Positions 19,462 through 44,006 are shown, counted from the first letter of the stretch. The stretch is 64,000 bases of DNA from Acidaminococcus sp. CAG:917 (GCA_000437555.1 FR901028.1:128893-192892); one strand, 5' to 3'. The notes: generated by a model from the sequence alone, not told the origin. Made by a program: numbers and translations.

Positions 19462-19835
19462 ATTTTCCTCCGCATACATTATTGCCAAAGGAAATTTTTT
19501 CAATCACTGCTACGGGTGTTTCCGGAAATTTTTAATTTTTTTCGGGCTGTCTTTTCGCTGTTTAAAAAGATATAAATTTCAAGTAAAAATCGCAATCTCA
19601 AGACGAAACGAGGTTTTGCTTTTTAAATTGATTTCTGCCTTAGCGATTTAAGTTTTTGAGTTTAATGCAATAAATTATATTTTAAATACTTAAAAACAGC
19701 TTAAATAGGGCTTTTTTTGTTATTTTTGCCAAAATATTTACAATATCTGTAAATGATTTTGCTCTGCGCCTATTGATTTTAAAACAATTATGTTATATTA
19801 TATAAACGTATATTATTGTCTAACTAAGGAGAAAA

Positions 19836-20591
19836 ATGCTTTACTCTGTTTCGGCGTTTAATTTAGCGGACGGCGCAATTTTATTGGTGCTTGTGCTCGC
19901 TCTTATCCGGGGCATAAGAAAGGGGCTAAGCGAATCCCTCAGCGGATTCGTTTTTAACCTGCTTTTGCTTGTCGCCGCCCTGTATCTTGCGAGCGTCTGC
20001 ACAAATCCGCTGCTTGACACGCCGACGGGACAAAAGCTTTACGAAGCGGTTTACGGTTGGTCGGAAAGCTGGGGAACGGAATTCACTTCTCCTGTGTTTT
20101 TCAACAACGGAACTCCGTTTATCTACAATGAAGCGGGAGAGGCGATAGAGCTGAGAGCCGCCGCCTCGAACAGCATTTTGGGAATGATTCTCGGCTTTTT
20201 GGCTCCGAAACTTTTGCCTGCCGAGGGCGGAGCGTCACTTGCGGACGCCATAGTCCCAAACTTTGTGGCAATAGTTTTCGCATTGGGACTGTTTATCGTG
20301 TTTTTCATAATTTTGAAGATTATCTTCAAAATAGTAGAAAAACTTGCCGAAAAATTCGAGGACGCGCCAAAACTCAAGTGGCTTGACAAGCTTTTGGGCG
20401 TTATCGTTTCAATGATTTTGGGATATGCCTTTGCCCTCTTCGTGTTCGGATTTTTGGGCATATTCGAAAACTTTTCGTTTATGGCGTCGGCGGTAAGTTA
20501 TATCGAAAATTCGGCATTTGCTTCCGCTATATGGACAAACAATCCCATACGGTTGCTGTTTATCAATATGTTCGGCGCACCGGGCGCATAG
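19836..20591 (+). CDS. cvpA: CvpA-family membrane protein
   Basis: 251 aa with 4-5 TM segments. The N-terminus (NLADGAILLVLVLALIRGIRKGL) is typical of CvpA. RBS AAGGAG. Confidence 0.65.
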   Translation: MLYSVSAFNLADGAILLVLVLALIRGIRKGLSESLSGFVFNLLLLVAALYLASVCTNPLLDTPTGQKLYEAVYGWSESWGTEFTSPVFFNNGTPFIYNEAGEAIELRAAASNSILGMILGFLAPKLLPAEGGASLADAIVPNFVAIVFALGLFIVFFIILKIIFKIVEKLAEKFEDAPKLKWLDKLLGVIVSMILGYAFALFVFGFLGIFENFSFMASAVSYIENSAFASAIWTNNPIRLLFINMFGAPGA

Positions 20592-24979: not shown

Positions 24980-26086
24980 TTATTTGTTATACATAACTCT
25001 GAGCGGCAAAATGAGATAAAGCCAATTTTTTTCCTGTCCTTTTATAATTCCCGGAGCAGACGGAGTCGTAAAATTCAGCGTTATATATTGGTCGGATATG
25101 GCTCTCATCGCGTCGGTTATATACTTACTGTTAAAGGCTATCATCATATCTTTGCCTTTTAAAGATATTTGGACTTTTTCGTTTACTTCGCCCGTGTTTG
25201 ATTCCGCCTTTAAAAGTATGACGTCTTCCTTTATTTCCATTTTCACGTAACTCTTTTTCTCGTTTCTTGAAATAAGGGACACTCTTTCGATTGCGTTTTC
25301 AAATTGTTTTTTATCGACTACTACTTCCGTTGTAAATTCTTCGGGAATAATTTTTTCATAAGCCAAAAACTCATCGTTTATGAGCCTTGTAACTATTTTC
25401 GTTCCGCTAAGCTCCAACATAAGATAATGCTTTTCAAAAGTCAGAGTTATTGTTTCTTCCGTATCGTCAATAAGTCTGCTCATTTCAAGCAAAGATTTTG
25501 AAGGAACTACTATCTGCTCTTTTTCAACGCTGTTTTCCATGGGAATCTGAGCGAGAGCAAGCCTGTAACCGTCAGAGGCGACTCCTTCCAATATGTTTTC
25601 TTTTATGTTTAAACAACATCCTTTAAGCGGAGGTCTGCTTTCATCTGTCGCAACGTTAAAAATTATCTTGTTTATTAAATCTTTAAATGCGAGTTTATCT
25701 ATTTTTATGGATTTTTCCTGACTTACCGATTTAAGCTCAGGATAATCTTCAAAATCGAGACATGCAAATGAAACGTCGCTGTCGAGATATTTTAATTTGA
25801 GCTTATTTTTATTTGTTCCGTCAAGCTCTATTTTTTCTTCTTCAATCTTTTTGCAGTATTCCGCAAAAATTTTACCGGGCACTATTATTTCGCCTTCAAT
25901 CAGAACTTCAGCCTTTATTTTCTTTTCAATCCAAAGCTCGAGGTCGGTTGCAAGAAGCGTGAGTTCGTCACCTTTAGCGGTGAGCTTTACGCAATCCAAA
26001 ACAGGATTCATTCTTTTTAAAGGCAAAGCCTTAATTACTTTTGAAACCGCATCGCTAAGCTCTATTCCCTCGCATTTGATTTTCAT
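24980..26086 (-). CDS. dnaN: DNA polymerase III beta sliding clamp
   Basis: 368 aa. N-terminus MKIKCEGIELSDAVSKVIKALP...NPVLDCVKLTAKGDELTLLATDLE. RBS AAGGAGAG. Immediately downstream of dnaA. Confidence 0.95.
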   Translation of the reverse strand: MKIKCEGIELSDAVSKVIKALPLKRMNPVLDCVKLTAKGDELTLLATDLELWIEKKIKAEVLIEGEIIVPGKIFAEYCKKIEEEKIELDGTNKNKLKLKYLDSDVSFACLDFEDYPELKSVSQEKSIKIDKLAFKDLINKIIFNVATDESRPPLKGCCLNIKENILEGVASDGYRLALAQIPMENSVEKEQIVVPSKSLLEMSRLIDDTEETITLTFEKHYLMLELSGTKIVTRLINDEFLAYEKIIPEEFTTEVVVDKKQFENAIERVSLISRNEKKSYVKMEIKEDVILLKAESNTGEVNEKVQISLKGKDMMIAFNSKYITDAMRAISDQYITLNFTTPSAPGIIKGQEKNWLYLILPLRVMYNK

Positions 26087-26152
26087 TTTCGCTCTCCTTT
26101 GTTGTTTAATATATTTTTTAAATTATTACTATTATTATTATCCCTGTTTATA

Positions 26153-26273
26153 AGTGGATAAATTTTTTATAACACAATATTTAGAAACTAACAATATTAA
26201 AAATCAAAATATAGTGTTTTTTTAATTAATTTTGTGTTGATAACTTTTTTTTATTTTCCACAAAATATCAACA
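26153..26273. promoter_or_regulatory. DnaA-box-like 9-mers in the dnaA-dnaN intergenic region
   Basis: Boxes versus consensus TTATCCACA: AGTGGATAA 26153-26161 (1 mismatch), TGTTGATAA 26235-26243 (1 mismatch), TTTTCCACA 26254-26262 (1 mismatch), ATATCAACA 26265-26273 (2 mismatches). Confidence 0.55.
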
Positions 26274-26292
26274 AAATAAAAAGTTTTCAACA

Positions 26293-27666
26293 TTACTTAT
26301 TTAAAAGCGAATTTTTTATATCCGTAACTATAATCCTCATGCGCGGATTCTTTTTTATTTCTTCGGTTATTTTATCTCTTGCGTGCATAACGGTTGTATG
26401 GTCTCTTCCCCCGAAAATTTTTCCTATGGAAACTAAGGGAACACCGAGCATGTTATCCATAAGATACATTGCTATCATTCTCGGTTCGACGATAGACTTT
26501 GTTCTGCTGCTTCCCGTGATGTCTTGATTTGTGATGTTAAAATAATTGCAAACGGCGCTTATTATATCGCTCTCTTCTATTTTTTCTTTTTTATCCTCGA
26601 TAAAATCAGAGAGAGCCTCTTTTGCTATATCGACAGTATCGACGGTATGATTTGTAAGAGAACTGTAAAAAATTATTTTGTTTAAAAGACCTTCCATCTC
26701 TCTGATGTTAGAGGTTGATTTTTCTGCGATATATTCCGCCACTTCGTCGGAAAGGTTAAATTTTTCTCTGACCGCTTTGTTTTTCAATATGGCGATTTTT
26801 GTTTCCATATTTGGGGGTTGAATATCAACGGTAAGACCCCAAGAGAACCTTGTCCTTAACCTGTCGTTGAGTTTTTGAAGGTCGCTCGGGGAACAGTCCG
26901 CGGTTAATACTATTTGTTTTTGATTTTGATAAAGGTCGTTGAAGATATGAAAAAACGCTTCCTGAATACCTTCCTTTCCCGATATAAACTGAATATCGTC
27001 AATCATAAGTAAATCGACCTTGCGATATTTTTCTCTGAAATCGTTAGAAGAATTTTTATTTTCGTTTGAAGACCTTATCGAATTTATAAGTTCGTTTATA
27101 AAAGTTTCTGAATTGACGTATAAGATTTTAGCTCTTTGGTTTGTTTTTGTGATATGATTTCCGATTGCGTGCAAAAGGTGCGTTTTTCCGAGACCTGCCG
27201 AGGAATATATAAACAAGGGATTATATTTTCCGCCGAGGTCGTCGCAAATTGCTTTTGCCGCTTCTAAGGCAAACTCATTGCTTTTTCCTTTTACGAAATT
27301 ATCGAAAGTATATCTTTCCAAAAATTTCATAGTCTCAAAATCGTCATCGGTTTGACCTTTTACAATCAATCCCTCGTCTTCGATAAAACTGTCTTGTTTT
27401 TTTATATATTCTTCTTTATCCGTATCGAGAATAATTTCAACGTTTGTTATCATCGGATTTATTGAGGTAACGGTTTTTTTTATCGTCTTGAGATATTGAT
27501 TTTCGATAGTCTTTTTGGACATATTGGAAATAGTAGACAAAATGAGCGAATTTTTTACAAAACAAACAGGCTCGAGTTTATCTATCCACACGTCAAAGCT
27601 TATTGAATTTAAAACTTTGGATAATTCCGACTTTGCGTCGTTCCAAAAAGAATCGATATTTATCAT
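26293..27666 (-). CDS. dnaA: Chromosomal replication initiator protein DnaA
   Basis: 457 aa. Walker A SSAGLGKTHLLHAIG, Walker B LLMIDDIQF, sensor/arginine-finger region, and the domain IV DnaA signature (IGKIFGGRDHTTVMHA). Confidence 0.95.
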   Translation of the reverse strand: MINIDSFWNDAKSELSKVLNSISFDVWIDKLEPVCFVKNSLILSTISNMSKKTIENQYLKTIKKTVTSINPMITNVEIILDTDKEEYIKKQDSFIEDEGLIVKGQTDDDFETMKFLERYTFDNFVKGKSNEFALEAAKAICDDLGGKYNPLFIYSSAGLGKTHLLHAIGNHITKTNQRAKILYVNSETFINELINSIRSSNENKNSSNDFREKYRKVDLLMIDDIQFISGKEGIQEAFFHIFNDLYQNQKQIVLTADCSPSDLQKLNDRLRTRFSWGLTVDIQPPNMETKIAILKNKAVREKFNLSDEVAEYIAEKSTSNIREMEGLLNKIIFYSSLTNHTVDTVDIAKEALSDFIEDKKEKIEESDIISAVCNYFNITNQDITGSSRTKSIVEPRMIAMYLMDNMLGVPLVSIGKIFGGRDHTTVMHARDKITEEIKKNPRMRIIVTDIKNSLLNK

Positions 27667-27673
27667 AGATTAT

Positions 27674-27702
27674 ATTATAACTAAACCAAAAGAATTTTTC
27701 AA
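27674..27702 (-). promoter_or_regulatory. dnaA promoter TTGAAA-17-TATAAT ending 7 nt before the ATG (no SD)
   Basis: The minus strand reads cgTTGAAAaattcttttggtttagtTATAATataatctATG. Confidence 0.55.
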
Positions 27703-27784
27703 CGAATATCGTATTATTTTTATTTTTTTACAATATATGCTTTTTTGGTAATTTTTCATTTTAAAAGATAAAAACTATATTTGT

Positions 27785-27813
27785 TTGTAATATTTTAACT
27801 TTTAATATATAAT
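27785..27813 (+). promoter_or_regulatory. recF promoter TTGTAA-17-TATAAT ending 6 nt before the ATG (no SD)
   Basis: -35 at 27785-27790 and -10 at 27808-27813, then ttgagt and ATG 27820. Confidence 0.5.
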
Positions 27814-27819
27814 TTGAGT

Positions 27820-28887
27820 ATGCAAATCAAAAAACTTTACCTTAAAAATTTCAGAAATTATTCCGAAGAAACGGTAGAATTTTCCGACGGATTAAACGTT
27901 TTATACGGAGCTAACGCAGCGGGAAAAACAAATATGCTTGAGGCTGTTTATCTGACGAGCATAGCCAAAACTCCGAGAACGACAAAGGAAAAAGAACTCG
28001 TTTTGGAAGGTGAAAAATATGCCGTGGTAAAGGTTTTGGTGGAAAACAATTTTCGCAGTCATAAGGTGGAAATAATAATCGACGATAAGGGTAAAAAGAG
28101 AATTTTGGTGGATTCTCTGCCTATCAACAGAGCGGGAGAGTTAATAGGAGTCGTTGCCGTTGTTTTTTTCTCGCCCGACGAAATGAAGCTTGTCAAAGAA
28201 TCTCCGGACTACCGTCGCAGATTTTTGGACATATCCTTATCACAGCAACAAAAAGAGTATTTTAACGCTCTTGTGAAATATAATAAAATTTTAAAACAGC
28301 GCAACAATCTTTTAAAAAGCGACTATGACGATATGGACGCTATGCTGGACGTTTACGACGTTCAACTCTCAGACGTAGGTCTTGTCATTTTGGATAAAAG
28401 AAGGGAGTTTGTAAACACTCTCAAAACTTATGCTTTAAAAACGCATAAATTTTTGAGCGATAACGGCGAAACTTTGGAAGTTGAATACGAAACAGAATTG
28501 ACAAAAGATAACTTTTTAAAGCTTTTAAAGAAAAACAGAGAGAAAGATAAAAAACTGTCGTTTACCACGGTAGGTCCTCATCGCGACGATTTAAAACTTA
28601 TCGTAAACGGAAAGGACGCCAGAAAATTTGCGTCGCAAGGTCAGCAAAGAAGCATAGCCCTTTCTTTAAAGTTTGCCGAATTAGAGCTGTATAAAATCGA
28701 AACGGGCGAAAAAGCCGTTTTGCTTTTGGACGACGTGCTAAGCGAATTAGACGTGAAACGCAGAACTCAGCTTTTAGAGCTTTCAAAGGAATATCAAACA
28801 ATTCTCACCTGCACCGAGTTTGACAGTTATGAAAAGGCGGTAAAATTTAAAATTGAAAACGGAAAGATAATAAAAAGAGAATATTAA
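27820..28887 (+). CDS. recF: DNA replication and repair protein RecF
   Basis: MQIKKLYLKNFRNY, Walker A GANAAGKTNMLEA, signature-like SQGQQRS, and Walker B LLLDDVLSELD. ATG 27820 is preferred over the track's TTG at 27814. Confidence 0.9.
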   Translation: MQIKKLYLKNFRNYSEETVEFSDGLNVLYGANAAGKTNMLEAVYLTSIAKTPRTTKEKELVLEGEKYAVVKVLVENNFRSHKVEIIIDDKGKKRILVDSLPINRAGELIGVVAVVFFSPDEMKLVKESPDYRRRFLDISLSQQQKEYFNALVKYNKILKQRNNLLKSDYDDMDAMLDVYDVQLSDVGLVILDKRREFVNTLKTYALKTHKFLSDNGETLEVEYETELTKDNFLKLLKKNREKDKKLSFTTVGPHRDDLKLIVNGKDARKFASQGQQRSIALSLKFAELELYKIETGEKAVLLLDDVLSELDVKRRTQLLELSKEYQTILTCTEFDSYEKAVKFKIENGKIIKREY

Positions 28888-32581: not shown

Positions 32582-34261
32582 CTATTTTGTCAGTTCATAA
32601 ACGAACGCTTCATAAGGCAATATTTTTGTATTTTGCAAAACGGCGGGCGTCGATTGATAGTTTGAAATGACAAGGCTTGATTTGAGGTCTTTAAATTCTT
32701 CGGGAACCTTAAATGTAGCGCATTTTGAGCTGTAACTGCAAACGACAAGATATATTTTGTCTCCGAGTTCTCTTTTGTATACGAACAGCTTTTTGTTGTC
32801 GTGCAAAAGTTCCGTGTAGCTTCCCTCTTTGATAATTTTGTTGCCCAATCTGAATTTGTTTATCTTTTTGTAAAAATTCAAAATCGAGTCTTCGTCGGCT
32901 AACGCTTCCTCTACGTTTATTTTTTTATAATTCGGGTTGACCATCATCCAAGGCGTTCCCGAGGTGAACCCCGCATTTTTTTCTGCGTTCCATTGCATTG
33001 GCGTTCTTGCGTGGTCTCTTGCCCTCTTTTGAAGTGCCCAAACTACTACGGGGATAAGCGGAGGGAAAAATTTTGCAATTTTATATATATTCTTTGAAAC
33101 TATATCCACGTAATCTTTAGGTTTAAAGCCTGCGATATTCGTCATGCCTATTTCCTGACCTTGGTAGATATAGGGCGTGCCTTTCATGAAGTTAATGCAA
33201 ATGGCGAGCATTTTAGCCACGTATTTGCGGTATTCGAGTTTTCCGTATCTCGGCAGAGAACGGGGATAGTCGTGATTTTCGATAAACAGACTGTTCCAGC
33301 AATTATCGGGAAGAGCCTGCCAGCTGCTGAAAATGGTTTTCCATTTTTTGAGGCTGAATTTTTTAGGAATAACCGTCATAAACGCGTCGGCTTCCTGATG
33401 CTCAAAGGTGAATATGCAGTCGAGTTCTTCACGGTCCTCTGCGACGATTGATTCGGCATTTGATACGGTTATTCCCTGTCCTTCGCCAACGGTCATAGAG
33501 TCGTATTTTGAAAATGCCTTTTGGTTGAGCTCGTGTATATATTCGTGATAATGCGGACCGATGACAAACTGTTCGTCACCGCATATAATAGGATTGAATT
33601 TGCCGTTCGGAAGCCCTTCCGTTTTGGATATATAGGTTATAACGTCGCATCTGAAACCGTCAACGCCGAGCTCAAACCAATAGTTGCAAATGTCTGCCAC
33701 TTCCTGCCTTACTTTGGGGTTATCCCAATTGAGGTCGGGTTGCTTTTTGCTGAACAGATGCAGATAATATTCGTTTGTCGTTTCGTCATATTCCCACGCG
33801 CTGCCTGAAAACCTCGACGACCAGTTGTTGGGCGGCTTCTTTCCGTTTTTGCCTCTGCCCGGTCTCCAGATATAATAATCCCTGTAAGGATTATCTTTTG
33901 ACGAACGGGATTGTTTAAACCACTCGTGTTCGTCCGACGTATGATTGACTACCAAGTCCATGACAAGTTTAATGCCTCTTTGATGCATGCCGTCAATCAT
34001 CTCTTTCCAATCGTCAAGAGTGCCGAATTCGTCCATGATATCACGGTAGTTCGATATGTCGTATCCGTTGTCGTCGTTGGGCGATTTATAGCAAGGCGAA
34101 AGCCATACGGCGGTCACGCCGAGGTCTTTAAGGTAGTCAAGTTTTGAAATAATGCCCTGAATATCGCCTATTCCGTCACCGTTTGAGTCGCAGAAGCTTC
34201 TCGGATAAATCTGATAAAATACGGCGTCTTTATACCATCTCGTTTTTTTGTTTTGTGTCAT
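32582..34261 (-). CDS. GH13 alpha-glucosidase / oligo-1,6-glucosidase
   Basis: WYKDAVFYQIYPRSF..DSNGDGIGD, DLVVNHTSDEH, GVDGFRCDV, GEG, and ENHD conserved regions of GH13 (oligo-1,6-glucosidase type). Confidence 0.9.
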   Translation of the reverse strand: MTQNKKTRWYKDAVFYQIYPRSFCDSNGDGIGDIQGIISKLDYLKDLGVTAVWLSPCYKSPNDDNGYDISNYRDIMDEFGTLDDWKEMIDGMHQRGIKLVMDLVVNHTSDEHEWFKQSRSSKDNPYRDYYIWRPGRGKNGKKPPNNWSSRFSGSAWEYDETTNEYYLHLFSKKQPDLNWDNPKVRQEVADICNYWFELGVDGFRCDVITYISKTEGLPNGKFNPIICGDEQFVIGPHYHEYIHELNQKAFSKYDSMTVGEGQGITVSNAESIVAEDREELDCIFTFEHQEADAFMTVIPKKFSLKKWKTIFSSWQALPDNCWNSLFIENHDYPRSLPRYGKLEYRKYVAKMLAICINFMKGTPYIYQGQEIGMTNIAGFKPKDYVDIVSKNIYKIAKFFPPLIPVVVWALQKRARDHARTPMQWNAEKNAGFTSGTPWMMVNPNYKKINVEEALADEDSILNFYKKINKFRLGNKIIKEGSYTELLHDNKKLFVYKRELGDKIYLVVCSYSSKCATFKVPEEFKDLKSSLVISNYQSTPAVLQNTKILPYEAFVYELTK

Positions 34262-34272
34262 GTTTCCCCCGA

Positions 34273-35163
34273 TTAGTTGTTATCTTTTTTTAAAATTTCT
34301 ACCAGCTGATAAATTCTTTCCAGGTCGTCCTTAGAGAAATAATCAATGGAAAATCTTCCTTTTTCCGGTGTTCCGACAAGTTTGACTCTCGTGCCGAAAA
34401 CTCTCTTCATATCGCTGACAAGCTCTTTTAATTCGAGTGTGAGAGGCTGAGTTTTTCTCGGACCGGACGGAATATTCTTTCTTGTCTCATAAAGCCTGAC
34501 TCTGTCTTCGACGTCCCTTACCGTCATTTTGTATTGAACAATCTGTTTGGCAAGATTTATCAAAAATTCTTTATTGTCAATGGTGACGAGAGCTCTTGCG
34601 TGTCCCGAAGAAATCTTTCCGCTTTTGACCATTTCAAGCACTTCCTCGGGAAGAGTTAAAAGTCTTAAAAGGTTTGTTACGTAAGGACGGCTTTTGCCTA
34701 TGCGGTCGGCAACCGCTTCCTGCGTTAGTCCGTGATTTGTCATAAGCTCTTTAATGCCTTCCGCCGCTTCTATTGCGTTTAAATCCTCTCTTTGAATATT
34801 TTCGATGAGGGATATTGCCTTTATTTCCTCGACGGGCAAATCTTTTATAATCGCAGGCACGGTTTTGAGATTTGCTTTCATAGCCGCGCGGTAACGTCTT
34901 TCGCCGGCTACTATTTGATAGCGGCCGTTGGGAAGTTTGGTGACGAGGAGCGGTTGCAGAACTCCGTAAAGCTTCATAGAGTTTGACATTTCCTTTAATG
35001 TTTCTTCGTCAAAAGTTTTACGGGCCTGTTCGGGATTGCGGTCAAGCATCGTTATGTCAAGCTGTTGAATCGCCCCTTCTCCTTCGATATTAACTTCTCT
35101 GTTGTCGGTATAGTCCGCAAACAACGCGCCTATGCCTTTGCCTAATCCTCTCTGTTGTGCCAT
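34273..35163 (-). CDS. parB: Chromosome partitioning protein ParB/Spo0J
   Basis: ParB box GERRYRAA, an HTH region (LTQEAVADRIGKSRPYVTNLLRLL), and position immediately downstream of parA. Confidence 0.9.
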   Translation of the reverse strand: MAQQRGLGKGIGALFADYTDNREVNIEGEGAIQQLDITMLDRNPEQARKTFDEETLKEMSNSMKLYGVLQPLLVTKLPNGRYQIVAGERRYRAAMKANLKTVPAIIKDLPVEEIKAISLIENIQREDLNAIEAAEGIKELMTNHGLTQEAVADRIGKSRPYVTNLLRLLTLPEEVLEMVKSGKISSGHARALVTIDNKEFLINLAKQIVQYKMTVRDVEDRVRLYETRKNIPSGPRKTQPLTLELKELVSDMKRVFGTRVKLVGTPEKGRFSIDYFSKDDLERIYQLVEILKKDNN

Positions 35164-35167
35164 AATC

Positions 35168-35947
35168 TTATCCTTTATTTTTATTTGTTCTGTTTAAAAA
35201 TTCGTTTTTCAAATCGGTATATGCTCTGCTGCCTAAACAATGTTTGTCATACAAAATTACGGGTTTTCCGAAGCTCGGAGCCTCGGCAAGACGAACGTTT
35301 CTCGGAATAATCGTTTTAAACACTTTCTCACAGAAATATTTTTTAATTTCTTCCGATACCTGCTGGCTGAGGTTGGCTCTTGAGTCGTACAGAGTGAGCA
35401 CAACGCCTTCCACTTCAAGTTTGGGATTGAGATATTTTTTTACAAGCATAACGGTATTCATCATCTGCGTTACGCCCTCTAAGGCATAATATTCGCATTG
35501 AATGGGAACTATTATTCCGTCGGACGCGGTAAGCGCATTTACGGTTAAAAGTCCGAGTGACGGCGGACAATCGAGGAAAATGAAATCGAAGTCGGCGCTC
35601 GCCTCGTTTATTTTTTCGGAAAGAATTTTTTCCCTTGCAATCACCACTTGCGCCATCTCAAGTTCCGCCCCGGCAAGGTCCATACAGCTCGGTATAAGCT
35701 TGAGCGTTGCAATGTCGGTATCCACTATCGCATCGGTTGCGCTCATCGAACCGCACAGCAAAGAATACGACGATTTTTCGCTTTTACGGTCGCTGAAACC
35801 TAATCCCGACGACGCGTTGCCTTGAGGGTCAAGGTCGACGACCAAAACTTTGTATCCGTCAAAAGCAAGACATGCCGCAAGATTTATGCACGTCGTCGTC
35901 TTTCCTACGCCGCCCTTTTGGTTGGAAAAAGCAATTATTTTAGCCAT
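35168..35947 (-). CDS. parA: Chromosome partitioning ATPase ParA/Soj
   Basis: Deviant Walker A NQKGGVGKTT at the N-terminus; 259 aa; followed by parB. Confidence 0.9.
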   Translation of the reverse strand: MAKIIAFSNQKGGVGKTTTCINLAACLAFDGYKVLVVDLDPQGNASSGLGFSDRKSEKSSYSLLCGSMSATDAIVDTDIATLKLIPSCMDLAGAELEMAQVVIAREKILSEKINEASADFDFIFLDCPPSLGLLTVNALTASDGIIVPIQCEYYALEGVTQMMNTVMLVKKYLNPKLEVEGVVLTLYDSRANLSQQVSEEIKKYFCEKVFKTIIPRNVRLAEAPSFGKPVILYDKHCLGSRAYTDLKNEFLNRTNKNKG

Positions 35948-36311: not shown

Positions 36312-37010
36312 CTATTCAAATTTCCAAAGCGGAGCTTTTTTGATTGCGTTAAACTGTCTCGGATAAATAGCGGGCGTAGCGGCTGTTTTTTCTATCACGA
36401 TTATCGCTCTTTCGTCACCGTTGGGAAGTTCAAATTTTTTTATGTCTTTCAAGCGGCAATTTATTTTGTTCAAGGCACTTTCCGAATTTTTCAATTCCTT
36501 ATCGTTTGATTTATAGCAGAGCATTATTCCGCCCGCCTTCAGCATGGGAGCAATAAGCTCGCAGAGTATCGGCAAAGTTGCGACCGCTCTCGCCGTGGCA
36601 AAGTCAAATTTTTCCGCTAAAAATCCCCTGCCCGCCTCTTCCGCTCTTGCCGTGACGGCAGTAAGGTTTTTAAGATTTAATTTTTGTGCCGCCTCGTTAA
36701 TAAAAGCGGTTTTTTTTGCAGTGCTGTCAACGGCGGTAACTTTTACCGTCGGCAGTACGATTGCGAGCGGCACGCATGGAAAGCCGCCTCCTGCGCCTAT
36801 GTCGACAAGCGTGCTGTTTTCCGATATAAATTCCGATGCGCACAGACTGTCAATCGTGTGTTTTATTTCAAAGTCAGACTCTTCGGTTATGGCGGTGAGA
36901 TTCATAACTTTGTTTTTTTCCAAAACAATGTGCATGAATCGGTCAAGTTTTTCGGCGATATTTGCGCTTAAATTTTTTTCCGTTAAAAATTTTTCGAGAA
37001 GTTTTCCCAT
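36312..37010 (-). CDS. rsmG: 16S rRNA (guanine527-N7)-methyltransferase RsmG (GidB)
   Basis: SAM motif VDIGAGGGFPCVPLAI, 232 aa, with the classical neighbourhood of parA/parB. Confidence 0.9.
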   Translation of the reverse strand: MGKLLEKFLTEKNLSANIAEKLDRFMHIVLEKNKVMNLTAITEESDFEIKHTIDSLCASEFISENSTLVDIGAGGGFPCVPLAIVLPTVKVTAVDSTAKKTAFINEAAQKLNLKNLTAVTARAEEAGRGFLAEKFDFATARAVATLPILCELIAPMLKAGGIMLCYKSNDKELKNSESALNKINCRLKDIKKFELPNGDERAIIVIEKTAATPAIYPRQFNAIKKAPLWKFE

Positions 37011-37207: not shown

Positions 37208-37897
37208 ATGAAAATTGCAATCATAACGGCAATGGAAAAGGAATGTGACCCAATCTATAAGCATTTAGGTTCGGTTATAGGAAGCGAAAGCGCAGGCGGA
37301 ATGACGATTTATCGTTTTGCCGTGGGCGATAACGACGTGTTTTTACTCTCTTGCGGCATAGGCGAAATTCAGGCGTCTGCCGCAACTCAGCTTGTTATCG
37401 ATAAATATGACGTTGAACTTATCGTCAACCTCGGTTTTGTAGGAAGTCTTGTTCCCGAACTTAAAGCCGGCGACGTTTGTTTCGTCGAGAGAGTCGTTCA
37501 TCATCAATTTGACGTTTCCGGCATTGACGGGGTTAAACGCGGACAGCTGGGAAAACATTCGGACATTTATTTTTATCTCGACAGACAAAAGGTGCTTGCG
37601 CTTCAGTCAAAGCTTCCCGATAAACTTCCGTTTGTCACTTTGGCTAGCGGCGACGAATTTATCTGCGACCGCAAAAAGAAGGATAAGCTTGTAAAAGACT
37701 TTGCCGCCGAAATTTGTGATATGGAACTTGCCGGTATAGCAATCACCGCAAAAAAGAACGGCGTTTCTGTTTTGTCAATCAAACTTGTCTCGGATAACGC
37801 CGACGAAAACGCCGCTATGTCATATAACGATTTTATTAAGGAAGGACTTCTGAAAATGGAAGGAGCAATAGGAATATTGCTGGGTATACTTCATTGA
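37208..37897 (+). CDS. mtnN: 5'-methylthioadenosine/S-adenosylhomocysteine nucleosidase
   Basis: MKIAIITAMEKE N-terminus, GIGEIQAS, and MELAGIA motifs of Pfs/MtnN. RBS GAGGTG. Confidence 0.85.
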   Translation: MKIAIITAMEKECDPIYKHLGSVIGSESAGGMTIYRFAVGDNDVFLLSCGIGEIQASAATQLVIDKYDVELIVNLGFVGSLVPELKAGDVCFVERVVHHQFDVSGIDGVKRGQLGKHSDIYFYLDRQKVLALQSKLPDKLPFVTLASGDEFICDRKKKDKLVKDFAAEICDMELAGIAITAKKNGVSVLSIKLVSDNADENAAMSYNDFIKEGLLKMEGAIGILLGILH

Positions 37898-38322
37898 AAC
37901 GAATAGCGTCTTTTGAAGTCAATCATGACGTGCTTGAGCGTGGTTTTTATCTTTCAAGGGTTGACCGTGATGTTTTTACCTATGACCTTCGTTTTAAAAA
38001 ACCTAACGGCGGTCAATATCTCGATATCAAAGCGATGCATTCGCTCGAGCATATGATGGCAACCGTGGCAAGGAACTCCGATTATGCCGATAAGGTCGTT
38101 TATTTTGGACCTATGGGCTGCCGAACGGGATTTTATCTTTTACTTTTTGGGACGGAATATGACGAAGCAAAAAATTTTGCTCTTGATTGTTTAAAAAAAT
38201 GCCTTGATTTTACTGTCGTTCCCGGAAGCGAACGAGTCGAATGCGGCAATTATCTTGAACACGACCTTGTCGGTGCAAAAAGAGAAATTACAGACTATCT
38301 TGCGTTGATGGAAAGCAAATAA
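37894..38322 (+). CDS. luxS: S-ribosylhomocysteine lyase LuxS
   Basis: HSLEHMMA (HxxEH metal site) and the GPMGCRTGFY Cys ligand. The TTG start overlaps the mtnN stop by 4 nt. Confidence 0.9.
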   Translation: MKRIASFEVNHDVLERGFYLSRVDRDVFTYDLRFKKPNGGQYLDIKAMHSLEHMMATVARNSDYADKVVYFGPMGCRTGFYLLLFGTEYDEAKNFALDCLKKCLDFTVVPGSERVECGNYLEHDLVGAKREITDYLALMESK

Positions 38323-38383
38323 CTGTTTTTTTTAAAAATTATATTCAAATTTATTTCGATAACCTTTTTAAGACAAAAATTTT

Positions 38384-38416
38384 ATCTCAAACGTTTTTCG
38401 TTTGAGATTTTATTTT
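38384..38416 (+). terminator. Terminator after luxS
   Basis: ATCTCAAACG-ttttt-CGTTTGAGAT 10-bp stem, then TTTTATTTT. Confidence 0.85.
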
Positions 38417-39365
38417 GGACAGTATTTTTCCTTAAGTTTTAAATTTTGATAGGTCTGTCATTATGCTACCGAATTTTAATTTTTCTCCGTGGCGCATTTT
38501 CTTTTTATAACTTTTTTATGATATAGCATTATATAGCTTTTTTATTTCGCCTTATTCCGTTTAGTTCTTTAATTTCAAAATTAACGGCTTACTCTTTATT
38601 TTTTGTTCCTTTTTCATTTTTTTTGCAAAATATCGCCAAATAGGTTCAATAGTTAACCTTTTTCTGTAAAAAATCGTCCTCTACGTTTGACGTTGACGAT
38701 TTTTTTGAATAACAACTCGAGACAATGCCAAATCGCCGAATTTTGGCTTACACGCCGTCATATGGCATGGGTTTTTTGAAAAAAATTAAAAATCGGATAA
38801 AATTCCTTTAAAACGGATTTTTTGCTTAAAATATGTTTCTCTTTTCATAATTTTTAAATTTTTCTTTATACCGAGTTTTTTTGCGCTCTTTAAAAGCTTT
38901 CCGTTCAATATTTTTTGCAACAAACTTGTTATCGGCACGCTGAATACAAATCCGAGCGTTTAACTTTTTCGTCTTGATATTTTTGCATTGTTTGTGTTTG
39001 TCTTGTTTCTTTCTCTTTGCGCTATTTCACAATACGAGTCGAACCTCAAATTCAGGTTTACCGTTTTATTAGTTACGTTTAAACGCTTGATTTGTTCAGG
39101 CGACGTCGTTTCATTTGTCGCTATACAATTTTTATTTTATCCTTTGAATTATTGTTAAAACGGTTTATATATTAACTATTATTAAGCAAAAAACATAATT
39201 TTATCAAAAGTTTTTAAAAAATATAGCGCAATTCGCTCAATCTTATTATTTGTCGGCGATTTTTTTTACTTTTTATTAATTTAGTCTGACTTTTTATGCC
39301 GATTTTTTTAGTCGCGTCGATTCGTTTTTACCGGGTAATCAGACGGCTGTCGGATATGACCTTTA

Positions 39366-39374
39366 TGCGGATAA
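39366..39374. promoter_or_regulatory. DnaA box, 1 mismatch (TGCGGATAA = reverse complement TTATCCGCA)
   Basis: Direct 9-mer match to consensus TTATCCACA with 1 mismatch. Confidence 0.5.
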
Positions 39375-39619
39375 CATACAACCTATTCGTTAATTTTACT
39401 TGTTTTATAAGGCGTTTTTAATTCATAGATTCTGTGCTGTTGTATGTATTTCTAAGGGTAAGAGCGCAGGTTATTTGTTTTCAAGTTGCGATAGATTTTG
39501 TTTTTTTGCCTTTTAAGATGCTTAAGCAGTTTTTTAGTATTGGTTTTTTAATTCTTTACAATGGAAATTTGCAGGAAAACTCCGATATGTCTTTTTGCGT
39601 CAATTTTTTCTGTTTTTTG

Positions 39620-39661
39620 TGTGGATAAATATGCATATTTGGTGGAAAAGCCTGTGGAAAA
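39620..39661. promoter_or_regulatory. Three co-oriented DnaA boxes
   Basis: TGTGGATAA 39620-39628 (perfect), GGTGGAAAA 39641-39649 (2 mismatches), TGTGGAAAA 39653-39661 (1 mismatch). Confidence 0.7.
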
Positions 39662-39777
39662 GCATATTTTTGTCTGTTTTTGCTCATTATGAAACATAGT
39701 CGTTTTGCCGTCAATTTCTCTTCGTTTTTACTTTTGTTCGGCATGATTGTGCGTCCGATTTCTTTTAATTTTTCTTA

Positions 39778-39793
39778 TGTTTCACGTGAAACA
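39778..39793. promoter_or_regulatory. parS site, perfect 16-bp palindrome TGTTTCACGTGAAACA
   Basis: Matches the Spo0J/ParB parS consensus TGTTNCACGTGAAACA at 16 of 16 positions. Confidence 0.85.
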
Positions 39794-39818
39794 TTTTATT
39801 TTTGATTTTTACGGTGAT

Positions 39819-39834
39819 TGTTCCACGTGAAACG
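39819..39834. promoter_or_regulatory. parS site TGTTCCACGTGAAACG (1 mismatch)
   Basis: 15 of 16 match to the parS consensus. Centre lies 41 bp from the first site. Followed by hairpin AAAACGCC-gtatttag-GGCGTTTT. Confidence 0.8.
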
Positions 39835-40049
39835 GAAAAACGCCGTATTTAGGGCGTTTTGGGCGTATTTTTGCTTAAAAAACGGGCATTTTGCTTAATA
39901 AAATGAGTCCGAAAGCCTTTTTGAATAAGACGGATACAATAAAGAAATTATGCTGAAGAGACGAGAAAAGTAAGCGTTAATACCGCCGAAACGGATATGG
40001 AGAATTTAATTTGTCGCTGACTCGGATTCGCCGTAGAAATTTGCGAAAC

Positions 40050-40100
40050 TTATCCCCTTTTTTTTGATATATCCACAACAAAGTGGTGCGATGTGGATAA
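40050..40100. promoter_or_regulatory. DnaA-box trio including a convergent pair
   Basis: TTATCCCCT 40050-40058 (2 mismatches), ATATCCACA 40069-40077 (1 mismatch), TGTGGATAA 40092-40100 (perfect, opposite orientation). Confidence 0.7.
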
Positions 40101-40541
40101 ACGTATTTAAACTGATATTTTTATCGTATAATTCCGTTCAGATGACCCAAAATAAATGTAATCCGCTCTTCGATATCTCGTTTTTTGCTCGGATAGGTAA
40201 AGAAACATATAAAAGGTATTAAAAGTTTCCTTATTATTAAATCTGCACGAGTTCCGACGGAGTTTAGTTTAAATACATAAAAAGCTTTTGCGGATATTGT
40301 TGCAAAAGGATAAACTGTCATTTTTGCGGTATTGTTTTTAATCCATACGTCGGCTGCCATAAAGACGGAGAGTTATTTTTTGAAAAGCCGTATTTTTTTT
40401 AGGATTGGAAATGAATTCAATAATTCATCCGGGAACGGTTAGCAAAATTTTGCCGATTGAATTTGCCTGTTGTCGGAATTAAATACGGCATTATAATACA
40501 TAATTAATCTGTCGGAAATCATATCCGAAAAAGGAGTTTTG

Positions 40542-40691
40542 ATGAAATGCTTTGAATGCGGTAAAGAAATCGCGGAAGACGAAACTTTTTATTGCCCGAG
40601 ATGCGGAGCGACGGTTTGCAATAATTGCAACGATATAAATGAAAACGTCTGTCCTTATTGCAACAGGTCGAATCTATATTTATATAATTAA
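40542..40691 (+). CDS. 49-aa Cys-rich double zinc-ribbon microprotein (hypothetical)
   Basis: Not in the ORF track (under 60 aa). Sequence MKCFECGKEIAEDETFYCPRCGATVCNNCNDINENVCPYCNRSNLYLYN, with four CxxC pairs. RBS AAGGAG 5 nt upstream. Possible promoter TTGTCG-16-TATAAT at 40470-40497. Confidence 0.45.
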   Translation: MKCFECGKEIAEDETFYCPRCGATVCNNCNDINENVCPYCNRSNLYLYN

Positions 40692-40925
40692 AATGCGGCA
40701 ATGCATAAAGCTGCGTTAAACTGCAATTTATTTTTGCTCGGTCGCTAAAGCCATATCGATGAGTTAAGAATCTTTTAAGCTTCTGAATTGAAATTAAAAA
40801 GCGGCTTAGATAAGGTTAGAATATTTGTTTTGAAAAGAGTAATTGAAAATATAGCAACGGAATAGGGTTGACTGTTAAAAAGGATTTAAAATATTGATAT
40901 GAGAGAAAACCCGATAAACGCAAAT

Positions 40926-40941
40926 TGTTTCACGTGAAACC
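40926..40941. promoter_or_regulatory. parS site TGTTTCACGTGAAACC (1 mismatch)
   Basis: 15 of 16 match to the parS consensus. Confidence 0.8.
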
Positions 40942-41681
40942 GTTTGCGTTTATACTTTAAAAAACATATAAAACAAAGAATTTGAATAATAGTCATTGTC
41001 CAAGTGCCGAATAAAAAATTTTTCATAAAAAACAATAAGGAAATCAAGAATAACGCTATCCAATAAATTCGAGGGAAAAGCGGTATGTTATTTACCGAAA
41101 CATACCGACTCATATGACGATTTTATAAATAGGCGACTATCGTCATATTAATTATGCTTTAACAGCGAATAAGGTGTAAAAAAGACAAAAAGCAAAAGGG
41201 AACATTTGCAAAGACTGCCGAAATAAAGCTTTGAAAGCTTTAAAACAGACATTGAAAATTTAAAAAAAAGAGACTTTTATAAATTTAAAAATCAGCCAAA
41301 CAAAATAAAAAATAAAGAGCTGCAATATACGGAGCAAATGGGTAAATTGAAAGTTCGGGAATTATACCGCGAATAGATTAAGCAAATATGAATAAAGACG
41401 GAAAGAGAAAAAATATGCTGCAAGAAGCGAAAACCGAAATCGAACGCGTCGGTCAAAAAAAAGGGAATTGAGGTCAAAAGTCGCTGAAAAGTAAAAAAAA
41501 TATACAGTTAGAATAAGTTAACTTGTAAATTAAAAGGCTGAAAAATATTTTATAAAAGCTGAAATTGAAGACAGAGCAGCCCTTTAAAAAGTCAAATACG
41601 GCGTAGAACGCGATATTTAACGCGGTAAACGGCAGTTTGATTATTTATACGGCGGAAAATTTAAGCCTTAATAAAGGCGTT

Positions 41682-43052
41682 TTACGGCGTGACTGAAATT
41701 TGCACCGGGTCGGACGAAGTATAGCCGTCTTTAGTTGCCACGATTTGAATAACGTCGTTTTCGGTTATAGGTAAAGAAGAAAAATCGTAGAAACGGCTAT
41801 CCGACACAACGGCAACCAGAGCGTTGTTTAAATAAATTTCAAAATTTGCCGAAGAAGCATATTCCCAATATAAAACGCCGTCTGAAATATATACGCTTTC
41901 GGGAGCATCGAGTTTAGGTTCGTATACGAAGAAAGTGTATATTTCCGTTATATAAGCGTTATCGTATAAAATAACGGAAAGGTAATTATAACCCGTGTAA
42001 AGAAACGACGAAACGTTTACAAAAATGCAGTAGTATTCCTTATTGTCTATCAGAACCGTCGTTTTTCCCGCAGTTTCGCATTTGTCGAGATTTATGTCGG
42101 GCACGGAAACGATATCGGAGGTAAAGAAGAATGTATCGTTAAGATACAATTCAAAATATTCAACGTTGCTCCGGGCGTAGAAAATGCAGAAACATTCGTC
42201 ACCGATTGCCGAAGCGGAAAGAAACTCGTTTGAAAATATTTCCTCCGGATTGTCGTCGGCGGGCGGTTCGGCTACGGGAATTTCAACGCTAATCGAGCCC
42301 GTGCGGCTAAAACATTCGTTTATCGCCGCGACCTCAATCATGTATGAATTGCCTTCTTTCAGCAAATGCGAAATATCGTAGCTTGATGCAAATACCGTTT
42401 CGATATACGTTCCGTCGACATAAATTTCGTAGCCGAGCGCGTTTTCGCATATATCCCAAGACAAGATACCGCCGCCGAAAGTCAAAACGGGAGCCAAAGG
42501 CGCAAGGACATACTTTGCGTAAACCGAAGTATCGGCGCTTGGATAATAACGGAAAGACTTTCGGTCGGACAAAAGCGAGTCGCCTATATACCAACCGAGA
42601 AAAACGGAATCGTCGTTTTCCGATGCGGTAAGGTCGATACAGTCGTAAACTTGGTGAGCTCCCGTATTTTGATGCGCCGGATTGTTTGAAGAAACGGTAA
42701 CCGTATAGGGTTCAAAGAGATAGGCGAATACGGTTATAAAGGAATCCGATTCCGTAATCTCGAGCGAATTGCAAGAAAAAGTATAACCGTCGGCAGAAAA
42801 AGACAATACGTCTTTAACGTTTAGCGAATCTAAATAAAACGTACCCGTGTCGTCTGTTTGGTAACGCAAAGAGCCGTTTACGAATACGTAAACGTTTGCC
42901 AAAGGCAAATCGCCGAAAGTGATTTTGCCCGATACGAATAATTCGTCTGCGGTCTTTTCTGAAGGGATATTATCGGAATCGTTGCACGCACAAAGTAAAA
43001 TCGGAAGAAAGCAAAGAATAAGCAAAATAAAAATTAAGACCAATAATTTCAT
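41682..43052 (-). CDS. Surface lipoprotein with CarboxypepD_reg-like, Listeria-Bacteroides-repeat-like and Fn3-like modules
   Basis: Signal peptide with Cys (LPILLCAC). VSGKITFGDLPLANVYVFVNG...GTFYL (Cna-B/CarboxypepD_reg-like). FLGWYIGDSLL (Flg_new-like). Two L-x-AP...L-x-W...Y-E-I-Y modules. Confidence 0.7.
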   Translation of the reverse strand: MKLLVLIFILLILCFLPILLCACNDSDNIPSEKTADELFVSGKITFGDLPLANVYVFVNGSLRYQTDDTGTFYLDSLNVKDVLSFSADGYTFSCNSLEITESDSFITVFAYLFEPYTVTVSSNNPAHQNTGAHQVYDCIDLTASENDDSVFLGWYIGDSLLSDRKSFRYYPSADTSVYAKYVLAPLAPVLTFGGGILSWDICENALGYEIYVDGTYIETVFASSYDISHLLKEGNSYMIEVAAINECFSRTGSISVEIPVAEPPADDNPEEIFSNEFLSASAIGDECFCIFYARSNVEYFELYLNDTFFFTSDIVSVPDINLDKCETAGKTTVLIDNKEYYCIFVNVSSFLYTGYNYLSVILYDNAYITEIYTFFVYEPKLDAPESVYISDGVLYWEYASSANFEIYLNNALVAVVSDSRFYDFSSLPITENDVIQIVATKDGYTSSDPVQISVTP

Positions 43053-43181
43053 AAGTAACCTATAAGGGCGTCAAAAGGGCGTAAGACGCCGGTAACGAAT
43101 AAAATATATTAAGTATAAAAACGCAATCCAAAGCCGAATACGCCCCTTTCGGGGCGTATAAATTATCAAAGCGAAATCAGT

Positions 43182-43970
43182 TTAAGCGCTTGGCCATTCG
43201 GCAACGGACGAGCGGTAACCTTCCGCAAAAGCGGTAACGGTGAAGCTATCGACGGGAGTGTCCAAAAGTATATAGTTTTGAGTCAGGTTATAAGTGGAAA
43301 CAGATTCGCCCGAGACGACTTCTAAGATATAGCCTTCCGCATGATTGACTTTTGACCAGGTTACGAGATAGCTTCCGATATATGCGACGGAAAGATTTTT
43401 GGCAGGAGCTAACAGAGGCGTATATAAAATGTTTAAATAAGACGGCATTGAATATTCTCCGTTAGCTTCAGAAACAACCGAAACGCAGTAAGCGCCGCCC
43501 GAAAGAATATAATTTGAAAGGTTTATTTGCGTGTCGGTAACGTCAGCCACTTTGATTTTGGAGACATATACGTGATGCACCGTCGCAGAAGAATCGGCGT
43601 TGAAATGCAGAAAGTCTCCGTCGAAATACAAAGCCGACGGTGAATCAAGCGATATGGTATACTCTATCTCCTTTATAAGGGTTCCGTTTGAGTAAACCTC
43701 GATGGTATTTTCGCCGGATTCAAGGTAGTCGCCGATATCGATTAATACGTCGTCCGCAGTTCCGTAAAATACGTAAGAATTCGTATTGGTTATTCGGACT
43801 TCGAAATCGCCGTCGCAAGCAACTTTAAGGCAGTATCTGCCGTCGGAAACTGTCACGGCGAACGATTCTGCAGCGGCGCAGGCTATGGAAAAACAGGGCA
43901 CAAAAGCCAATGCGATAATGCTCAATGCCGCAAAAATAATCGCGGATTTAAAGATAATTGCTCGTTTCAT
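43182..43970 (-). CDS. Secreted protein with repeated Fn3-like modules (paralogous modules shared with the downstream lipoprotein)
   Basis: Start set at ATG 43970 (MKRAIIFKSAIIFAALSIIALAF... signal peptide, AAA-E cleavage-like site); the track start 44006 is TTG. Modules LLAPAKNLSVAYIGSYLVTWSKVNHAEGYILEV. Confidence 0.65.
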   Translation of the reverse strand: MKRAIIFKSAIIFAALSIIALAFVPCFSIACAAAESFAVTVSDGRYCLKVACDGDFEVRITNTNSYVFYGTADDVLIDIGDYLESGENTIEVYSNGTLIKEIEYTISLDSPSALYFDGDFLHFNADSSATVHHVYVSKIKVADVTDTQINLSNYILSGGAYCVSVVSEANGEYSMPSYLNILYTPLLAPAKNLSVAYIGSYLVTWSKVNHAEGYILEVVSGESVSTYNLTQNYILLDTPVDSFTVTAFAEGYRSSVAEWPSA

Positions 43971-43976
43971 TTCAAA

Positions 43977-44006
43977 ATTATAACAAAATTCGACAAAAAA
44001 TAGCAA
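43977..44006 (-). promoter_or_regulatory. Promoter TTGCTA-18-TATAAT ending 6 nt before ATG 43970 (no SD)
   Basis: The minus strand reads TTGCTAttttttgtcgaattttgtTATAATtttgaaATG. Confidence 0.45.

Follow-up and report, generated by a model that had tools for sequence, protein, structure and literature searches.

A predicted origin-proximal parS centromere flanked by DnaA boxes in an uncultured bacterium of the gut Clostridia

The stretch of DNA analysed here, hereafter called the window, comprises 64,000 nucleotides of the genome catalogued as Acidaminococcus sp. CAG:917 (GCA_000437555.1 FR901028.1:128893-192892). Its source is an uncultured gut bacterium from the Clostridia that resembles members of the Christensenellales, and the relatives of its ParB protein all come from metagenome-assembled genomes of such bacteria. 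In a public assembly collection, 239 indexed blocks contain this ParB sequence in identical form. The window includes dnaN, dnaA and recF, the partition genes parB and parA, and a gene-poor stretch without any sizeable open reading frame (ORF) that holds three near-consensus copies of parS, the binding site of ParB (Table 1). Two of the copies, parS-1 and parS-2, form a tight doublet, which is flanked on both sides by boxes for the initiator protein DnaA.

Table 1 Positions of the parS sites, DnaA boxes, genes and other features in the window
Feature	Position	Strand	Description
dnaN	24980-26086	-	
Candidate origin-unwinding module, dnaA-dnaN spacer	26121-26161	+	seven NAN trios, 11-nt spacer, box AGTGGATAA
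dnaA	26293-27666	-	
recF	27814-28887	+	
YitT-family gene, tRNA-Asn, esterase	between recF and amylase	all +	
Amylase	32582-34261	-	
parB	34273-35163	-	Pfam ParB_N and HTH_ParB; predicted DNA-binding CTPase clamp
parA	35168-35947	-	soj-like partition ATPase; Pfam AAA_31, CbiA, ParA
rsmG/gidB	36312-37010	-	
pfs	37208-37897	+	
luxS	37894-38322	+	
Stretch without sizeable ORF	38323-41681		3.36 kb; holds the parS sites
Left DnaA-box triplet	39620-39661 (starts 39620, 39641, 39653)	-	same orientation; as read on + strand: TGTGGATAA (perfect), GGTGGAAAA (2 mismatches), TGTGGAAAA (1 mismatch)
Invariant 10-mer TATGAAACAT	39688-39697	+	between left boxes and parS-1
parS-1	39778-39793	.	TGTTTCACGTGAAACA; perfect 16-bp palindrome, 0 mismatches
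parS-2	39819-39834	.	TGTTCCACGTGAAACG; 1 mismatch; 41 bp from parS-1
Hairpin	39837-39860	.	A-tract / GC stem / T-tract; adjoins parS-2; resembles a bidirectional terminator
Invariant 10-mer TTTGCGAAAC	40040-40049	+	19 nt ahead of right box pair
Right inverted DnaA-box pair	40069-40100 (starts 40069, 40092)		ATATCCACA, 14 nt, TGTGGATAA (perfect)
Zinc-ribbon ORF	40539-40691	+	50 codons; CxxC...CxxC...CxxC...CxxC
Extended palindrome	40914-40953		40 bp, around parS-3
parS-3	40926-40941	.	TGTTTCACGTGAAACC; 1 mismatch; centre of the extended palindrome
Two ORFs	41682-44006	-	456 and 274 aa
gyrB	44398	+	
gyrA	46341	+	

The parS sites and their cognate ParB

Mismatches of the parS sites were counted against the reference consensus TGTTNCACGTGAAACA, a 16-bp palindrome. 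The spacing of the doublet is measured from start to start and corresponds to approximately four helical turns. The third site lies 1.1 kb from the doublet, and all three are located within 1.2 kb of non-coding DNA. The number of matches with at most one mismatch expected by chance is 0.00, as determined from 100 dinucleotide-preserving shuffles of the window. The sequence CACGTGAAAC occurs at three places in the window, all of them inside parS-1, parS-2 and parS-3, and no further parS was detected in the 64 kb, parB included, when up to three mismatches were allowed. Outside the parS sites, CACGTG was observed three times versus 6.6 ± 2.2 expected, a depletion that is not significant. The sequence that the three sites have in common is limited to a core of 16–17 nucleotides (repeat family D7), and the spacers between them are unrelated. 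The initial annotation of this DNA had listed the same three 16-mers, the first as a perfect palindrome and the first two 41 bp apart, and had reported no other copy in the window or in parB; each of these statements is borne out, the last of them even at three mismatches.

The doublet lies 4.6 kb upstream of parB, the identity of which is established by its Pfam domains, in agreement with the previous assignment of this ORF. The parA gene adjoins parB in all close relatives. The ParB sequence scores above the cut-off of the TIGR00180 (parB_part) model, and its alignment with the Caulobacter protein of the ParB–parS co-crystal structure 6T1F spans 220 residues (E = 7e-51). Its N-terminal domain contains the CTP-box GERRYRAA, aligned to GERRWRAA of the Caulobacter protein, and CTPase activity is predicted from this sequence. 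The Noc-binding site (NBS) is the palindrome ATTTCCCGGGAAAT. It was considered as an alternative identity of the 16-mers and rejected: their sequence is that of parS and not of NBS, the score of ParB against the Noc model TIGR04285 is 213.9, which is under the cut-off of 315, and ParB has the specificity residues R/L/T/G and not Q/K/K/R. The four residues are R159, L165, T170 and G187, which occupy the positions of Caulobacter R173, T179, A184 and G201 in the alignment to 6T1F. According to the specificity rule of Jalal et al. (PMC7383237), the equivalents of R173 and G201 define the parS-type proteins, and the combination Q/K/K/R defines the Noc-type. Therefore, the ParB of the window is of the parS type, because the R..G pair is present and the Noc-type combination is absent.

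The non-coding region was compared among six conspecific strains (L033–L038) in an alignment of 3408 columns, 232 of which are variable with respect to the window. None of the variable columns falls within the 84 positions of the binding sites, which comprise 48 positions of parS and 36 positions of four DnaA boxes (39620-39628, 39653-39661 and the right-hand pair; the middle box of the left triplet was left out). Approximately 5.7 variable columns are expected in these 84 positions, and arithmetic from the counts gives P of approximately 0.003.

Comparison between species was based on 20-kb loci around ParB homologues. The identity to the ParB of the window is 96% in L001, 78% in L002 and L003, and 59% in L004, and the intergenic DNA is mostly unalignable. 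Both sites of the doublet are invariant in L001–L003, with a spacing of 41–42 bp (alignment A1). Locus L004 contains one good parS with a degenerate partner 34 bp away and a cluster of DnaA boxes; as in the window, they are situated between pfs and gyrB. The third site is kept in L001, where the palindrome has the arms AAACGCAAAT and ATTTGCGTTT (alignment A2). In L002 and L003, the third site has moved beside the doublet, away from the position of the zinc-ribbon ORF.

The three 16-mers are very probably functional chromosomal parS sites, which, as judged from their sequence, would constitute the centromere, the loading sites of the ParB whose gene is 4.6 kb distant. The earlier designation of the sites as Spo0J/ParB-type parS is thus supported by the consensus match, the presence of a cognate ParB and ParA, the invariance among strains and the phylogenetic footprints. 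By analogy to characterised ParB proteins, ParB dimers would recognise each palindrome through their helix-turn-helix domains, and would then bind CTP, close into a clamp and slide onto the flanking DNA. The resulting partition complex would be acted on by ParA (Soj) and would load SMC near the origin. The expected occupancy of the sites by ParB, its spreading, the loading of SMC and the stimulation of ParA are all derived from the protein family. On this view, the doublet and the third site, 1.1 kb apart, would simply provide more points for loading, as relatives do with doublets or with up to seven sites.

Pairs of parS sites spaced 39–47 bp apart recur in the loci around ParB homologues, in nine of the related genomes covered. 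The spacing is 41 bp in the window, 42 bp in L001–L003, 41 and 39 bp in L012, 46 bp in L021 and L023, and 47 bp in L025; a pair with a spacing of 40 bp in L015 has one partner with two mismatches. In L010–L013, L015 and L024, which belong to more distantly related Clostridia, four to seven near-consensus or perfect parS sites are arranged in tandem just downstream of parB. Every parS within the window and the 20-kb loci of the relatives belongs to a cluster. The recurrence of doublets and tandem arrays in relatives indicates that tight multi-parS centromeres are a habit of this lineage. It has been reviewed that multiple origin-proximal parS sites are known from many bacteria (PMC7022226), and a literature search on parS pairs at a fixed distance found nothing specific. 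The tandem arrays have intervals of 40–190 bp and are situated in long, ORF-free, AT-rich DNA, and several of their contigs end 1–3.5 kb from the array.

The hairpin that follows the doublet was previously placed at 39836-39859; it is real in the window, with an 8-bp stem formed by 39837-39844 and 39853-39860. Its folding energy is -14.5 kcal/mol on the plus strand (z = -3.0) and -10.9 kcal/mol on the minus strand, with z of approximately -3 for both. However, the closest relative L001 does not have it (z = +0.3), and in L002 and L003 hairpins occur in other registers. The hairpin was therefore rejected as a conserved, defining part of the locus. The description of a doublet followed by a hairpin as an unusual architecture does not hold, because doublets and arrays are common in the lineage and the hairpin is not kept in L001. 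The extended palindrome around parS-3 (I10), which the initial annotation had missed, is 91% self-complementary and has a folding energy of -19.2 kcal/mol (z = -6.2). Its arms carry two strain variants that are not compensatory, the 16-mer inside it is without variants, and L002 and L003 lack it. A larger protein-binding site and a hairpin in RNA were both considered as explanations; the arms are kept in L001, but in view of the strain variants and the absence from L002 and L003 the palindrome is probably incidental.

DnaA boxes around the parS doublet

The perfect DnaA box TTATCCACA occurs only twice in the window, at 39620 and 40092, and both copies belong to a cluster of five boxes within 481 bp. 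The order of elements in this composite, which extends over approximately 480 bp (39620-40100), is the left triplet of boxes, the 10-mer TATGAAACAT, parS-1, parS-2, the 10-mer TTTGCGAAAC and the right pair. All three boxes of the left triplet are conserved in L001–L003, whereas their flanks have diverged (alignment A4). The right pair is conserved in the same loci (alignment A3), and an equivalent pair adjoins parS in L004. The initial annotation had described the parS sites as embedded in a tract of DnaA boxes, which is correct in that five boxes flank the doublet and are kept in L001–L003. Both 10-mers are identical in the window and L001–L003 (alignments A1, A3 and A4), in contrast to the diverging spacers. 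The 10-mers look like half-sites of parS; it is only a resemblance, and a corresponding function would be putative.

The proximity of DnaA boxes to parS extends to more distant relatives. There are 19 perfect DnaA boxes within 400 bp of parS over 23 parS loci, versus 4.9 expected from the density of boxes. In L023, a doublet with a spacing of 46 bp is followed by four DnaA boxes approximately 175 bp further on, and in L017 three perfect boxes are found 160 bp beyond the last parS. The ParB proteins of these two loci are 45–49% identical to that of the window.

The preferred reading is that the doublet is at the centre of a composite in which an origin-proximal cluster of DnaA boxes has been fused to a centromere, and that this composite is not the origin itself. 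A functional coupling of the module with DnaA would be putative. A more specific proposal, which can only be put forward tentatively, is that the composite is a dedicated cis-acting coupling element found across an order of gut Clostridia, or, as a variant, the upstream half, now separated, of a bipartite oriC. High-affinity sites for DnaA would flank the ParB loading sites at distances of 116 bp on the left and 234 bp on the right. A roadblock formed by DnaA on these sites could gate or confine the sliding ParB-CTP clamps; alternatively, the complex of ParB and ParA could control a local reservoir of DnaA. If the proposal is true, the Soj–Spo0J–DnaA circuit of Bacillus subtilis would be hard-wired in one 480-bp element approximately 13 kb from the unwinding site.

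Position of the origin and alternative explanations

The parS locus is origin-proximal, at a distance of 12–14 kb from dnaA, and the module is approximately 13.5 kb from the candidate unwinding module in the dnaA–dnaN spacer. The sequence of the candidate is AAT TAT TAC TAT TAT TAT TAT, followed by the C-rich spacer CCCTGTTTATA and the box AGTGGATAA. Basal unwinding elements have been defined as a DnaA box, a spacer of at most 16 bp and at least three NAN trios (PMC8287927), and the candidate is the only element found that fits this definition. The same architecture is present in L001 (region 19817-19857), where substitutions in the trios leave the central A intact. A scan for box-spacer-trio modules with at least five trios gave no match in the 38.3–41.7 kb region among the six best of the window; runs of three or four trios were judged by eye. 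The segment 26121-26161 is the probable DNA-unwinding site of oriC and not a part of the centromere.

The cumulative skews of the window do not agree on one position: the minimum of the GC skew is at 26598, in dnaA, versus 40473 for the AT skew and 39824, inside parS-2, for the purine excess. It is conceivable, albeit rather unlikely, that the 3.3-kb non-coding region is the origin itself, with parS inside oriC and with dnaA–dnaN displaced 13 kb to the left by a rearrangement. The two minima other than that of the GC skew lie in this region, as do both perfect DnaA boxes of the window, and the region occupies the ancestral oriC slot of Firmicutes between gidB–parAB and gyrBA. Furthermore, the AT skew at third codon positions (AT3) of the coding strands places nearly all genes from 19.8 to 38.3 kb in the left replichore and those from 41.7 kb onward in the right one, and L001 behaves like the window. 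However, no box-spacer-trio module of the region was among the six best matches of the scan for at least five trios, and the conserved one is in the dnaA–dnaN spacer, close to the minimum of the GC skew. All three minima (AT skew, GC skew and purine excess) of L002, a locus with the same synteny, are located at the dnaA–recF spacer, and in L017 and L023 the skew curves are monotonic through the module of parS sites and boxes. The AT switch in the window is exaggerated because the two ORFs to the right of the non-coding region have an atypical composition. The recF–dnaA–dnaN block (24980-28887) is inverted relative to parB in comparison with L002 (16061-20159), with L001 like the window; the inversion is consistent with an origin inside the block, on which it would have been centred. 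Two other measures were discarded as locators of the origin: the per-gene GC skew at third codon positions (GC3) mainly reflects codon bias and the strand of transcription, and a ranking by AT-richness does not discriminate among the many intergenic regions of similar AT content.

The initial annotation had called this locus a segregation and origin hub. The part of the name that refers to an origin-proximal centromere of the parS type stands. By contrast, the unwinding module and the GC minimum are at dnaA and dnaN, and the skews do not turn at the module in L002, L017 and L023. Because the evidence is split, the term is not accepted as stated.

Some of the observations weigh against the reading of the locus as a parS centromere fused to a box cluster outside the origin. 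The minima of the AT skew and purine excess mean that the DnaA boxes could belong to oriC proper. The hairpin and the extended palindrome may be incidental, because they are not consistently conserved. In addition, the scan for parS covered the 64-kb window, and further sites are possible elsewhere in the genome.

It is improbable that the sites are mainly ParB operators, which would silence or regulate local transcription, for instance of the zinc-ribbon gene or of an unannotated RNA. Such a role would agree with the terminator-like hairpin after the doublet, with promoter-like hexamers that overlap parS-3 and precede the zinc-ribbon ORF, and with the influence of ParB on transcription in some species (PMC7022226). 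However, the promoter-like matches, at 16 versus 12.2 ± 3.4 in shuffled sequence, are not commoner than by chance, and searches of Rfam at gathering and permissive thresholds identified no RNA family in the 38.3–41.7 kb region, where sub-threshold matches to mir-312 and Phe-leader were taken as chance. The third parS of L002 and L003 is positioned beside the doublet and away from the small ORF, and in B. subtilis the loss of Spo0J is reported to leave the expression of genes adjoining parS unchanged (PMC7022226). A further notion is that the 16-mers are palindromes that arose by chance, copies of a dispersed repeat or sites for an unrelated factor that binds CACGTG. All that favours it is the common occurrence of short palindromes in intergenic DNA rich in A and T. 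It is effectively refuted by the shuffles, the alignment of L001–L003 and the invariance among strains. It is also at odds with a consensus fit that spans all 16 positions beyond the CACGTG core, a similarity of the repeats that is restricted to their core, the conservation of the sites at syntenic positions in several species and the presence of a gene for a parS-type ParB nearby.

Neighbouring features and comparison with known systems

The zinc-ribbon ORF inside the gene-poor stretch has a ribosome-binding site as well as a promoter-like sequence (40470-40497). Conserved counterparts occur in L001 (73% amino acid identity) and L002 (55%); only two columns in 40500-40699 vary among strains, and the ORF was not called as a gene in the six conspecific contigs. 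The segment 38638-38825 has 71% identity to L001 6259-6446 within otherwise unalignable non-coding DNA, and gave no ORF or Rfam match. The two ORFs at 41682-44006 have no Pfam or NCBIfam match, begin with an N-terminal signal or lipoprotein-like sequence, and have atypical, T-rich coding strands. Their identities to the counterparts in L001 are 36% and 44%, versus 96% for ParB, and they may encode fast-evolving surface proteins. The gene order differs in L004 (9264-12304), a locus from the Christensenellales: parB directly follows gidB without parA between them, dnaA is convergent and comes immediately after parB, and recF separates dnaN from dnaA.

Four palindromes of 4 bp are extremely rare in the 64-kb window, with 4 occurrences of GATC, 3 of CTAG, 11 of GTAC and 17 of GGCC. 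Base composition predicts 125–237 occurrences of each, and the Markov estimates are 157, 45, 84 and 199, respectively. Ten 6-bp palindromes with these cores are wholly absent from the window. The avoidance of the 4-bp palindromes suggests strong restriction-modification pressure.

Taken alone, the parS sites are routine annotation: they mark the centromere and the domain around the origin in a species of Clostridia that is uncultured but widespread in the human gut. The more useful comparative by-product is the pattern in the lineage, in which parS sites form tight doublets or long tandem arrays, repeatedly together with clusters of DnaA boxes. The composite is a sequence-defined, testable candidate for a physical coupling of initiation control and segregation. 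Its perfect DnaA boxes also have a practical consequence: origin predictors that rely on such boxes could misplace oriC at the centromere module instead of the unwinding module between dnaA and dnaN.

The sopC centromere of the F plasmid is of the iteron type and consists of 12 tandem 43-bp repeats. It is similar to the doublet in that palindromes bound by a protein of the ParB family are approximately 40 bp apart. Nevertheless, a sopC-like iteron centromere was rejected for the window, where only the 16-mer core is repeated, in two to three copies with unrelated spacers, and its sequence is that of chromosomal parS.

The sites of the window are more closely matched by the Spo0J/ParB-parS system of B. 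subtilis, with which they share the identical 16-bp consensus, a Spo0J-like ParB, a Soj-like ParA and the origin-proximal location. B. subtilis has ten parS sites, eight of them in the ori domain (PMC7022226, Table 1). Unlike in B. subtilis, where the sites are dispersed and one is inside spo0J, those of the window are confined to 1.2 kb of non-coding DNA and none is in parB. Other bacteria have several parS sites grouped near oriC, which has been interpreted as providing more robust segregation (PMC7022226). The grouping is alike in the window; however, the spacing of 41 bp is tighter and the sites lie among DnaA boxes.

Interleaved binding sites for ParB and initiators are otherwise described for secondary replicons, namely chromosome II of Vibrio cholerae (PMC3688505) and chromosome II and the megaplasmid of Deinococcus radiodurans (PMC7671480). 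These replicons resemble the window in that a single cis region holds both kinds of sites, which links replication with segregation. They differ in using their own initiators or repeat arrays, whereas the window belongs to a primary chromosome with canonical parS sites, and its module is probably not an origin.

The flanking boxes are most like the DnaA-box clusters outside oriC of B. subtilis, which hold back initiation in synergy with Spo0J, by way of Soj (Okumura et al. 2012, PMC3245932). In both cases, several boxes are present in intergenic DNA close to the origin but outside the unwinding site, provided that the origin of the window is at dnaA–dnaN. By contrast, the clusters and parS sites of B. 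subtilis are described as separate origin-proximal loci, and in the window the five boxes and the doublet form one conserved unit of approximately 480 bp, any function of which would be putative.

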